A stretch of DNA of 64,000 nucleotides from positions 9,660-73,659 of the forward strand of contig JAZUBR010000020.1 in the NCBI GenBank assembly GCA_045638625.1. Reading direction: 5' to 3'. The stretch's first letter is position 1, and every line of letters starts with the position of its first letter. The notes beneath the pieces are model-generated. The model was not told the origin of the DNA and made no database searches. It worked only from the letters and a program-made list of their open reading frames with translations. The position numbers were made by a program, and so were the translations under genes. The stretch is from Candidatus Gastranaerophilaceae bacterium. GTDB lineage: Bacteria; Cyanobacteriota; Vampirovibrionia; Gastranaerophilales; Gastranaerophilaceae. This document shows, one piece after another, positions 39,444 through 41,757 of the stretch.

Positions 39444-41027
39444 ATGTTTCACAAATATTTTGAAGATTACGGTTATGATAGTTGCTCCTCTAGAGGAGTT
39501 TGTTCAATTAGTCCTCGAATGGCATCCATTTCGGAGATAATTCTCCTATACATAAAAGAGTTCGCAAACTATTTAAACAAATTACAAAAACTAGGTTGCG
39601 AAGATAAAAAAGCAAAAAACTTAATTATAAATACACTCTCTGCTTTCGTATCAAACCCAGAGATTCCTGACGACGTTTTTGCTAAAGTTATTTGCACTTA
39701 TGCTAAAGAACTTGAAAATTTAAAAAACAAATACACTCAAGAATGCACAAACCAAAATATAATCCCAGAGTATACAAATAACGATATCGAAACAGGTAAT
39801 GATTGCGATGTAATTGCTTCTATTCGACTTGGAGAACAAAAATTTTTAAGCAAACCTTCACCTGCACATTATATTCAAGAACTAATTTTCTTTACAGCAA
39901 AAAGCCTGACAATCTATCTAATAGAGCTCAATTCTATGGAAAAAGATTCTTCATCAGCTTTCCAAGTAATATTAAATCTTCTAGATTCTCTTAATTCAAA
40001 CGAAATATCAGAAGAGAAACTCAAGAACCTTTTACGCAATGCTGCAAAAGAAGAATACAATTTAATAAAAGAAATTTCTGAATTAAAAGAAAAGCTCTAT
40101 GGTACCCAGCAGGAAACTGAAGTAAATCTATCCACAAATAGCGGAAAAGCTATCCTTGTTGATGGAAGTAATCTCCGTGAACTGGAAGAAATTCTTTCAG
40201 GTTTAAAAAATACAGATATTGATGTCTATACTCACGGCGAATTAATTAGTGCCCACGCTTACCCTAAATTTAAAACCTACAAGAATCTTAAAGGACATTT
40301 TGGGCAAGGGGCAGGTAAATCAATATTAGATTTTTCAACCTTCCCTGGGGCAGTTTTTATCGGAAGACATTCAATAGATAATATAGACAACCTCTACAGA
40401 GGTCTATTATTTACTACCGATATTATCGTACCCAAGGGTGTCATAAGAATCGAAAACTCCGATTACACAAATTTATACAAAGCAGCCTTAAACTCAAAGG
40501 GATTCAAAAAAGGCAAAAAACTTGAAGCTAAAAAACTTAATTACAATAAAGAAAGGCTGAAAGAAAAATTCAGTGGAATCAATTTTAACAAATACGAAGG
40601 AATTTGCCTTATAACCCAAGGAAATGAATACTACACAGATAGGAACTATTTTGAGAAATTTTTAAAACTAATCCCTGATGATATCTTTGTAGTAAACTTC
40701 TCTACACCCTACAAAGGTGACAACATAATTAACATTTGTGCCTGCTACAATTTAATTTCTGTATTTGAAATTGTGTCAATTCTAAAAGAAAATGTTAATT
40801 TTGAAGAAAAACCGATAATAGCCTTTGTGCCAAGATGTGACAAACACATTACAAACTTAATCATAAACCTTTTACAACAAGGTATTAAAAAAATATTTAT
40901 GGGCAAATGTGCAGCAAAAAATATCAATCCAACAGTCGTTGATGAATTTTGCAAACTTTTTGATGTCAGCAAATACGACAATGTAAAAGAAGATTACAAA
41001 ACCTTCATTGATGCTATGACAATCTAA
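39444..41027 (+). CDS. Hybrid-cluster protein (Hcp/prismane)-family protein, divergent
   Basis: GKAILVDGSNLRELEEILSGLKNTDIDVYTHGELISAHAYPKFKTYKNLKGHFGQGAG...FPGAVFIG aligns with E. coli Hcp [58 protein letters not shown]...FPGPIVMT. EGICLITQGNEYYTDRNYFEKFLKLIPDDIFVV aligns with [32 protein letters not shown]. The N-terminal Cys cluster is reduced to CSSRGVCS. Confidence 0.7.
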   Translation: MFHKYFEDYGYDSCSSRGVCSISPRMASISEIILLYIKEFANYLNKLQKLGCEDKKAKNLIINTLSAFVSNPEIPDDVFAKVICTYAKELENLKNKYTQECTNQNIIPEYTNNDIETGNDCDVIASIRLGEQKFLSKPSPAHYIQELIFFTAKSLTIYLIELNSMEKDSSSAFQVILNLLDSLNSNEISEEKLKNLLRNAAKEEYNLIKEISELKEKLYGTQQETEVNLSTNSGKAILVDGSNLRELEEILSGLKNTDIDVYTHGELISAHAYPKFKTYKNLKGHFGQGAGKSILDFSTFPGAVFIGRHSIDNIDNLYRGLLFTTDIIVPKGVIRIENSDYTNLYKAALNSKGFKKGKKLEAKKLNYNKERLKEKFSGINFNKYEGICLITQGNEYYTDRNYFEKFLKLIPDDIFVVNFSTPYKGDNIINICACYNLISVFEIVSILKENVNFEEKPIIAFVPRCDKHITNLIINLLQQGIKKIFMGKCAAKNINPTVVDEFCKLFDVSKYDNVKEDYKTFIDAMTI

Positions 41028-41757
41028 GATTATCTAGCAAACGAGTTGCATATTCTTCATTATAGTACTTGGAAACGTCTTCCAAACAAGTTTCAAACTC
41101 TCCCAAATATTTCACAGGAATATTAAAATCTTTGTTAATGTATTCTTTTACAAGAGATTTAAATCTTTCAACAGGAATATCTACAACAACCACTTGAGGA
41201 TTTACTTTAATCAAGTAAGCAAGCACCTCATTGAAGTTTCGCCTAAATCTTATTATATTTCCACTTAAAAGGTATTCTACACCCCAAGATAACTCTCTAT
41301 TATTCAAAACTTCTACGAACAATTGATTAAGTTTTTCAGTAACAATAGCAGCATTGGCTCCCAAATAAACAACCTTTGCTTCAAAGCTTTGTGATTTTAA
41401 ATAGTTTTTTTTCTTAAAATACTTATTCGCAAAAGCTGACTGAGAAATTCTTGTTAGTAGTCCTCCAAAAGTTGAGTACAAATACTTCCGTTTCGCTGCA
41501 AAAATAACATCATCTATAGGAATTTCACTTGGGCAACAAGAAGAACATTTTCCACATCTCAAGCATAAATCCAAGTATTTATTAATGCCTTTTTTCATCG
41601 GGACTTCTTTTTGTAGAATTCCCTTCAGCATAATAAGAAAACCTCTTGCCGTTTCGCATTCATTTCCGTTTGCACGATATGCTGGACAAGATTCTTGGCA
41701 TAAACCACACTTTGAACATTTATGCATTGTTTCTTTATATTGTTCAAGATTCATCAT
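41014..41757 (-). CDS. 2x[4Fe-4S] ferredoxin-domain protein (GlpC/GlcF N-terminal-like), co-transcribed downstream of glmU
   Basis: Two motifs are present, CSKCGLCQESCP and CLRCGKCSSCCP. The C-terminal ~130 aa have no CCG motifs. The gene overlaps glmU by 4 nt at its start and overlaps the convergent Hcp-like gene end by ~14 nt. Confidence 0.65.
   Translation of the reverse strand: MMNLEQYKETMHKCSKCGLCQESCPAYRANGNECETARGFLIMLKGILQKEVPMKKGINKYLDLCLRCGKCSSCCPSEIPIDDVIFAAKRKYLYSTFGGLLTRISQSAFANKYFKKKNYLKSQSFEAKVVYLGANAAIVTEKLNQLFVEVLNNRELSWGVEYLLSGNIIRFRRNFNEVLAYLIKVNPQVVVVDIPVERFKSLVKEYINKDFNIPVKYLGEFETCLEDVSKYYNEEYATRLLDNLRLS

Follow-up and report, generated by a model that had tools for sequence, protein, structure and literature searches.

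The stretch of DNA analysed here (the window, 64,000 nucleotides; positions 9,660 to 73,659 of the forward strand of contig JAZUBR010000020.1, NCBI GenBank assembly GCA_045638625.1) comes from a Candidatus Gastranaerophilaceae bacterium and carries a gene for a 527-residue protein related to Hcp, the hybrid-cluster protein (HCP). With a probability of roughly 0.6, the product of this Hcp-like gene is a functional member of the HCP/Prismane superfamily that has been repurposed, and its maintained function uses a simpler, putative thiol-based centre. Judged from alignments and substitution counts, the protein belongs to a clade that is under purifying selection and has lost conservation at the seven hybrid-cluster ligand positions and at the first two cubane cysteines.

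An earlier note on this DNA had taken the protein for an Hcp homologue by eye, and profile and structure comparisons bore this out. The protein matched the Pfam Prismane family (PF03063, E=1.6e-29, 103 bits against a cutoff of 27) and, with residues 12-521, the NCBIfam hydroxylamine reductase model TIGR01703 (E=6e-56). The scores stayed below the equivalog cutoffs of both TIGR01703 (190.0 vs 360.8 bits) and NF003658 (189.5 vs 367). All solved HCPs were matched, with 8cnr on top (1.1e-28, residues 13-522). An AlphaFold2 model built from 24 family sequences was confident (predicted local distance difference test, pLDDT, 85.7; predicted template modelling score, pTM, 0.88), and Foldseek superposed it over about 540 columns, at 18-20% identity, on the class I/II HCPs 1e2u, 1e1d, 1gn9, 8cnr and 7de4 with template modelling (TM) scores of 0.77-0.80. 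A class III HCP fitted less well (TM 0.60), as did nickel-dependent carbon monoxide dehydrogenase (Ni-CODH; about 0.5 at a root-mean-square deviation of about 14 Å). Since the profile matches and the superposition are near full-length, the homology to Hcp is real across all three domains. With class I HCPs (D. vulgaris, PDB 1W9M/1E2U; M. thermolithotrophicus, 8CNR) the protein shares length, three-domain architecture, the motifs YTHGE..AH, F..FPG, Y..R..TT and YF..F and a proline at position 496, although identity is only 18-23%. The class III enzyme of M. marburgensis (7E0L) has the same HCP domain but, unlike the Hcp-like protein, lacks a middle region of about 100 residues; it is a homodimer and keeps all seven ligands (PMC10502027).

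The seven hybrid-cluster ligands have been described as 'conserved among all HCP classes', and the cubane cysteines likewise occur in all three (PMC10502027). To map the ligand positions, 118 sequences were aligned with MAFFT L-INS-i, with D. vulgaris Hcp as the anchor; its sequence and numbering were taken from the canonical Hcp P0120 aligned to chain 1e2u_A. The ligand residues were verified at D. vulgaris positions 3, 6, 15, 21, 244, 268, 312, 406, 434, 459 and 494. As the earlier note had claimed, the cubane motif is reduced to two of four cysteines: Cys14 and Cys20, with the Cx5C spacing of the second half of the class I motif, are present, and Cys3 and Cys6 have no counterpart. An N-terminal extension bearing the missing CxxC is ruled out by an in-frame TAA (39429-39431) that precedes the ATG by four codons. 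At the hybrid cluster only two of the seven ligands are identical (Glu266 and Cys434 of the window protein), and neither is conserved among relatives. His244, Cys312, Cys406 and Cys434 of D. vulgaris Hcp are replaced and Glu494 is changed to Asp. The suspected loss of the cysteine in the GGCDG motif was confirmed, as Gly393 stands at Cys406 with ITQGNE in place of AGCDG. An alignment with all seven hybrid ligands and four cubane cysteines, which the earlier note had named as evidence against its proposal, was not what we obtained. Moreover, Lys496, the acid-base lysine two residues after the glutamate ligand (PMC6344411), is His468 in the window protein and H, N, Y or S in the family.

The same picture emerged when conservation was computed over 184 ligand-poor family sequences, in which none of the seven positions is conserved as a ligand. 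The His244 column holds Ser or Thr in 127 of the 184, the Cys312 column is mostly Ser, and the Glu268 column (E, N, D or G) lies at the 53rd entropy percentile. Columns 406, 434 and 459 reach the 98th, 69th and 95th percentile. The Glu494 column is mostly Asp (60%, as Asp466 in the window protein). Cysteine occupies the Cys459 column in 21% of the family, and a strain variant 98% identical to the window protein has Gly there; Cys434 is thus dispensable as the sole thiolate 'retained' from the hybrid site. By published ligand criteria the protein does not count as an Hcp, although it has the fold of one. Nor does it qualify as a Ni,Fe-CO dehydrogenase (CooS/AcsA): the C-cluster ligands of ChCODH-II (His261, Cys295, Cys333, Cys446, Cys476 and Cys526) are equivalent to HCP ligand positions (PMC10502027), these positions are lost, and the fold match is weak. 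CODHs are furthermore dimers with B and D clusters.

The ligand-poor protein does not stand alone. A word-indexed search returned 127 relatives (17 clusters at 54-98% identity, about 95 at 30-40%), and species-representative genomes, when scanned, contained 373 stretches that encode a relative, the best 80 of which belong almost all to metagenome-assembled genomes of Candidatus Gastranaerophilales, Melainabacteria or Vampirovibrio from gut or rumen. When 1.84 billion representatives were searched exhaustively with a profile, 361 matched at E<=1e-30. Within the top 150, 80 of 113 full-length representatives at 50% identity had zero to two of the seven hybrid ligands, and nearly all of these ligand-poor proteins had exactly two cysteines in the N-terminal segment. 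Canonical HCPs (seven ligands, four cysteines) started only at about 277 bits. In a neighbour-joining tree the ligand-poor proteins formed one clade of 78 tips that contained no canonical HCP. The window protein shows every feature by which we defined this clade, namely a full-length HCP fold with at most two of seven hybrid ligands, the CxxxGxC remnant, the motifs LYRG and DFxxFPG, and the pair Cys465/Cys489 described below. LYRG, DFxxFPG and RLGE are conserved specifically in the ligand-poor family; Lys153, Tyr262-Thr263-His264, His271 and the F..FPG motif are strongly conserved in both family and Hcp. No family member was named in the sources searched by cluster look-up, the searchable literature gave no description of such ligand-poor HCP-like proteins, in Melainabacteria/Gastranaerophilales or otherwise, and no second Prismane gene was found within the window.

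Selection was estimated against the strain variant (L081, Logan SRR27608068). The two Hcp-like genes differ at 29 synonymous and 10 non-synonymous sites, which gives a ratio of non-synonymous to synonymous rates (dN/dS) of 0.083. For five neighbouring genes the ratio ranged from 0.02 to 0.21 (GlmU 0.02, ferredoxin-like 0.12, RibH 0.15, giant protein 0.21). The alternatives first proposed for the window protein, a different or simpler cofactor or repurposing, were the right ones, but they apply to a large, selected clade and not to a one-off copy.

Single sequences with partial ligand sets form a ladder between the ligand-poor clade and the canonical HCPs in the tree. P0249, P0230, P0263, P0286, P0288, P0293 and P0299 keep three to four cubane cysteines and only one to three of the seven hybrid ligands; the four-cysteine motif is present in all of these but P0230. 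The ladder may record stepwise ligand loss; just as well, the tree being crude, it could be an artefact of long branches. The sequences suggest that the HCP branch lost ligands either in steps or more than once. One apparent intermediate, P0021, was rejected as such: it looks like the ligand-poor family up to about residue 262 and, from about residue 263 to residue 551, like a canonical Hcp with all C-terminal ligands. The switch occurs close to the IDxYTHGE motif common to both, and the protein is known from a single 2246-bp contig (ENA). Probably it was either chimerically assembled or produced by natural recombination. Likewise, P0117 (906 aa, 2852-bp contig; 55% identity to the window protein over 31% of its length) joins a ligand-poor Prismane fragment to a BEACH domain (PF02138), probably through an assembly or gene-calling artefact.

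Loss of ligands was accompanied by conservation of other cysteines. In the N-terminal Cx5C loop, Cys14 (89%), Gly18 (91%) and Cys20 (93%) are kept throughout the family. Cys465 and Cys489, present in 82% and 75%, are new to it, as D. vulgaris Hcp has Tyr493 and Thr517 at these positions. They occur together in 135 sequences and are jointly absent from 31, leaving 18 discordant. In a tree built without these two columns, six changes (of 14 and 11) fell on the same branch in the same direction vs 0.42 expected (p=3.9e-7). Cys101, likewise gained relative to class I HCPs, does not co-vary with the other conserved cysteines. The window protein displays the five-cysteine pattern CCCCC, shared by 90 of the 184 family members. 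In the model, two beta strands follow one another (458-462 and 483-486), and three residues past each comes one of the two cysteines: Cys465 on the loop corresponding to the Glu494-bearing loop of Hcp, Cys489 on the loop after the next strand. In Hcp, Cys406, Cys434, Cys459 and Glu494 extend to the hybrid cluster from positions of this kind.

Published HCP biochemistry bears on what these residues could hold. Single cubane-cysteine substitutions (C67Y, C67S and C67A) abolish the [4Fe-4S] cluster and leave the N-terminal region disordered, and E492D impairs E. coli HCP (PMC10502027). Because the ligands are lost, we expect neither a hybrid cluster nor a conventional four-cysteine cubane, and therefore the Hcp-like protein is predicted to be no nitric oxide (NO) or hydroxylamine reductase. 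Selection would maintain a simpler Cys-based site, one part of it being the Cys14-x5-Cys20 loop and the other the new coupled pair Cys465/Cys489. In the most likely arrangement these thiols would hold one redox centre of low complexity; either both pairs could ligate a rebuilt iron-sulfur (Fe-S) cluster, or Cys465/Cys489 could form a metal or disulfide site of their own, with a vestigial site remaining at Cx5C. Instead of reducing small molecules, the protein would then be a module for redox functions, electron transfer or sensing. In the cytoplasm of a strict anaerobe, a newly gained, co-changing cysteine pair points more often to a metal or redox site than to a structural disulfide.

The two cysteine pairs may lie close to each other. 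In the class III C67Y structure (7WSX) the Glu434 loop, which corresponds to the Glu494 loop, enters the space of the lost cubane-binding domain (PMC10502027). Because the loop shifts there, the Glu494-equivalent loop should abut the N-terminal cysteine segment, and we infer that it packs against the cubane-binding segment in solved HCPs. The disordered N-terminus and shifted Glu loop of that variant parallel the low-confidence N-terminus of our model (pLDDT <50 for residues 1-21), which is to be expected if the fold of the segment depends on a cofactor. A composite four-cysteine site (Cys14, Cys20, Cys465 and Cys489) between the N-terminal segment and domain 3 can be proposed tentatively, with the odds against it. 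A single three-cysteine site of Cys14, Cys20 and Cys465 was considered as well and was weakened by a sub-clade without Cys465 and by the marginal coupling between the N- and C-terminal cysteines.

Several observations weigh against a repurposed protein with a thiol-based centre. The low confidence of the N-terminus with Cys14 and Cys20 bears directly on its proximity to Cys465/Cys489. Coupling between the N- and C-terminal cysteine pairs is marginal (two joint changes, p about 0.04-0.06). About 16 sequences, one coherent sub-clade, keep Cx5C without Cys465, and about 11 representatives have no Cx5C at all. Part of the clade therefore works without one or the other site, which favours a metal-independent core function. 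Finally, gene context is heterogeneous across loci and names no pathway, with no single partner conserved.

The most frequent context is an apparent operon. At about 28 other loci, the Hcp-like gene is followed on the same strand, at 30-92 bp, by a gene for a receiver + MinD-like ATPase protein and, 1-15 bp past this gene, by one for a membrane protein of no assigned family. Locus L009 and these loci (for example L011, 7640-8794) encode a 384-aa receiver + MinD-like ATPase protein of CpaE/TadZ-type architecture and a 273-aa multi-pass protein without Pfam match; divergently upstream, loci of the L009 type carry genes for an OB + HD protein and a 108-aa Gly-rich membrane protein. A role of the ATPase as a CooC-type maturation factor was rejected, as it is of the CpaE/TadZ type and gave no CooC signal. 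In the P0098 sub-clade (L085/L086, 7674-9805, minus strand), whose residues at the seven ligand positions are Gln-Gly-Phe-Leu-Ile-Phe-Asn, the Hcp-like gene is convergent with a pair of genes for corrinoid Fe-S protein-like (CdhD/AcsC-like) proteins. Their domains are PF04060 FeS plus PF03599 CdhD and PF03599 alone, a module associated with CODH/acetyl-CoA synthase (CODH/ACS). L088 (4380-9210, plus strand) harbors three tandem ligand-poor Prismane paralogues of 534, 538 and 529 aa that are 39-40% mutually identical, which suggests paralogous expansion and possibly hetero-oligomers. At L093 (4760-4993, plus strand) a 77-aa glutaredoxin with a CPYS motif is encoded 7 nt upstream of the Hcp-like gene, an arrangement seen only in the P0101 sub-clade lineage (GCA_947857085.1).

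In the window, the 3′ end of the Hcp-like gene overlaps by 14 bp that of a convergent gene for a 247-aa protein with two CxxCxxCxxxCP motifs, and no terminator was found between the two genes. The description of this neighbor as a di-[4Fe-4S] ferredoxin held for the motifs of two clusters, but it is no plain ferredoxin: a GlcF/HdrD-type module is fused to a Cys-less CCG domain. Its N-terminus matched Fer4_8 (1.1e-10, 42.3 bits against a cutoff of 27; eight cysteines invariant) and, with residues 7-83, GlcF NF008434 (6.6e-15). Beyond the close clade, the nearest relatives are Fer4 + CCG proteins of 345-365 aa. With proteins of the GlcF/HdrD/LutA type the 247-aa protein shares the helical 2x[4Fe-4S] module and a collinear first CCG domain, but its CCG cysteines are replaced and, as alignment with the Fer4 + CCG proteins P0159-P0161 indicated, the second CCG domain is missing. 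P0159-P0161 match PF02754 at 2.7e-22 and 1.1e-27; a Pfam scan gave no PF02754 match in the 247-aa protein, and a PDB profile search with its C-terminal domain returned ferredoxin-module matches only. With no CCG cysteine left and no second domain, the protein should be unable to form the non-cubane cluster or active site of the GlcF/HdrD/LutA family.

The pairing of this gene with glmU, called odd before, was also found: glmU overlaps its start by 4 bp, and the two genes are probably co-transcribed. Other gene callers start glmU at 43037, giving 427 aa. Inheritance of the pairing from full-length Fer4 + CCG relatives was not found, as these sit elsewhere. At L092 (2-1515, plus strand), the upstream gene with which one of them shares 4 bp looks NagA-like (THLFNAM motif) and is not glmU; the overlapping upstream genes of L092 and of the window both belong to amino-sugar metabolism. 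Beside glmU, at window 43170-43448 (plus strand), lies a 92-aa Cys-containing open reading frame (ORF) (…CDICNTGHF…CETEETCDEIVC…) without Pfam match. It is 55-58% identical beside glmU in seven of the eight close-clade loci, is called as a gene in L081, and looks like a real small protein.

How far the two convergent genes belong together was assessed from adjacency counts over 80 loci bearing an Hcp-like gene. Partnership, with the 247-aa protein delivering electrons or sharing a cluster as Hcr does for class II Hcp, is improbable in our estimation. The arrangement (Hcp-like gene, convergent ferredoxin-like gene, glmU) is kept in all eight close-clade loci (Hcp-like proteins 53-57% identical to that of the window) and in the strain variant, both proteins derive from Fe-S enzymes and are depleted in cysteine, and the 247-aa form (about 20 clusters, all at least 50% identical) occurs only in the clade that holds this Hcp-like sub-lineage. 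However, the other 72 loci have no such neighbor, nothing like the 247-aa form was found beyond the close clade, and its Fer4 + CCG relatives do not adjoin Hcp-like genes. Being convergent, the two genes do not share a transcript. It is glmU to which the ferredoxin gene is coupled, and GlmU (75-81% identity) and orf92 travel along as in plain synteny. The convergence is thus real here, but a family-wide link was rejected, and the adjacency, limited to a close clade, is probably clade-local synteny. The idea that the Hcp-like gene has lost its Hcp function and is now decaying into a pseudogene would account for the massive loss of catalytic residues and for a family that carries no name in any source, and it is effectively refuted by intact full-length ORFs in more than 100 clusters, members of the same length at only 30% identity, the low dN/dS, the confidently predicted fold and the family-specific motifs and cysteine pair.

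An Hcp-type reductase with a hybrid cluster modified by non-canonical ligands (Ser, Asp, Glu, His or Cys465) is very improbable. Glu266 with the YTHGE motif, His264, His271 and Lys153 are retained, and Asp466 is a conservative replacement of Glu494. Moreover, structural groups of Ni-CODHs, which share the superfamily and the Pfam Prismane family, have non-canonical active-site motifs (Inoue et al. 2019; PMC6344411), and such motifs are common in the CODH branch. These groups (clade D/CooS-V, A-3, A-5, B-1 to B-3, C and G) are a precedent for superfamily clades with unconserved cluster-ligand motifs and no assigned function (PMC6344411), although, unlike the Hcp-like protein, Ni-CODH variants usually keep most cysteine ligands. 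Here, only two of the seven ligands survive; the five replaced ones include the persulfide Cys406 and all three or four thiolates. The replacements at 406, 434 and 459 are among the most variable columns, the catalytic lysine is lost, the score lies far below the equivalog cutoff, and the single changes cited above already impair or abolish the clusters of genuine HCPs. A metal-free pseudoenzyme, in which the Hcp fold serves as a scaffold, binding protein or regulator and the cysteines are structural or form a cofactor-free disulfide, is rather unlikely, though it is the main rival. It would fit seven positions unconstrained as ligands, sub-clades lacking either Cx5C or Cys465/Cys489, and the absence of a conserved Fe-S maturation gene or redox partner; in addition, the commonest apparent operon partners suggest a role in positioning or signalling. 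The CxxxGxC loop, kept with its glycine at 89-93% across a clade of 30% identity, would be unusual for a structural remnant, and a gained pair that co-changes six times is more typical of a metal or redox site. We therefore keep to a repurposed HCP fold with a simpler thiol-based centre as the favoured explanation.

Table. Coordinates of the Hcp-like gene, of its ligand and cysteine positions and of adjacent features in the window (ligand numbering as in D. vulgaris Hcp).
Feature	Position	Strand	Basis or remark
Promoter-like site TTAACA-17-TATATT	39364..39392	+	10/12 consensus match only; ~50 bp 5′ of Hcp-like start codon
Hcp-like gene, 527 aa	39444..41027	+	Prismane/HCP fold, class I/II three-domain architecture, ligand-poor
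Cys14-x5-Cys20 (CSSRGVC) at Cys15/Cys21, surviving half of class I CxxCx8Cx5C	39483..39503	+	alignment
Cys101, helical domain, 73% conserved; Tyr102 in D. vulgaris Hcp	39744..39746	+	family alignment
Ser242 at ligand His244 (GSN for GHD)	40167..40169	+	alignment
Glu266 at ligand Glu268 (YTHGE motif retained)	40239..40241	+	alignment
Ser310 at ligand Cys312 (RHS for TNC)	40371..40373	+	alignment
Gly393 at persulfide ligand Cys406 (ITQGNE for AGCDG)	40620..40622	+	alignment
Thr421 at ligand Cys434	40704..40706	+	alignment
Cys434 at ligand Cys459	40743..40745	+	alignment
Cys465-Asp466-Lys467-His468 for Tyr493-Glu494-Gln495-Lys496 (ligand Glu, catalytic Lys)	40836..40847	+	alignment
Cys489, co-varies with Cys465; Thr517 in D. 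vulgaris Hcp	40908..40910	+	alignment and tree
3′-end overlap (14 bp) of Hcp-like gene and convergent Fe-S gene	41014..41027		ORF coordinates
247-aa Fe-S protein, GlcF/HdrC-type 2x[4Fe-4S] N-terminus and Cys-less CCG domain	41014..41757	-	profiles, alignments
Degenerate first CCG domain, ~residues 128-200 (GC->AN, CCG->SWG, CxxC->IPVE)	41158..41376	-	alignment to P0159-P0161
Dicluster domain, residues 11-79, two invariant CxxCxxCxxxCP and invariant Cys34	41521..41727	-	Fer4_8, alignment
glmU	41754..43067	-	NF010934 505.2 vs 450 bits; TIGR01173 490.7 vs 366.85

The promoter-like site falls in a 178-bp intergenic region. On its other side, a divergent gene (window 33851-39265, minus strand) encodes a giant protein of 1804 aa with an N-terminal EF-hand-like match, about ten tandem 'AEKLCxDKEFPKEHIxxIL' repeats and an HD domain (PF01966, 9.6e-5); partial homologues are encoded near Hcp-like genes in L045 and L050. 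Elsewhere in the window, positions 10001-16000 are low in GC (27-29% vs about 33-35% elsewhere) with a strongly negative AT skew and hold two minus-strand ORFs of about 990-1000 aa (10090-13062 and 13278-16274). A full-length bacterial RNase P RNA of class A (230 bits) lies at 52763-53116 (plus strand) and a tRNA at 1397-1472 (minus strand).

Published work treats the hybrid ligands and cubane cysteines as invariant over three HCP classes, and the clade described here contradicts that: it is large, selected and lineage-specific, and it has kept the whole fold, discarded the ligands and gained a new coupled cysteine pair. That it constitutes a fourth HCP class, with an inter-domain Fe-S or thiol site and a chemistry or sensing function unseen in Hcp or CODH, is a possibility we raise with reserve. 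Equally tentative is the corollary that this class is specific to the non-photosynthetic gut relatives of cyanobacteria and diversified there into paralogous lineages, including tandem triplicates. As a caution, such Melainabacteria proteins should not be annotated as hydroxylamine reductase or Hcp, and defence against nitrosative stress should not be inferred from them. The clade offers a natural experiment in the repurposing of a complex metallo-enzyme fold, and the graded partial-ligand sequences could reveal the order in which ligands were lost. Gastranaerophilales are little-understood gut bacteria known, in the records seen here, only as metagenome-assembled genomes. Because the Hcp-like protein appears widespread among them, its function may matter for their physiology.

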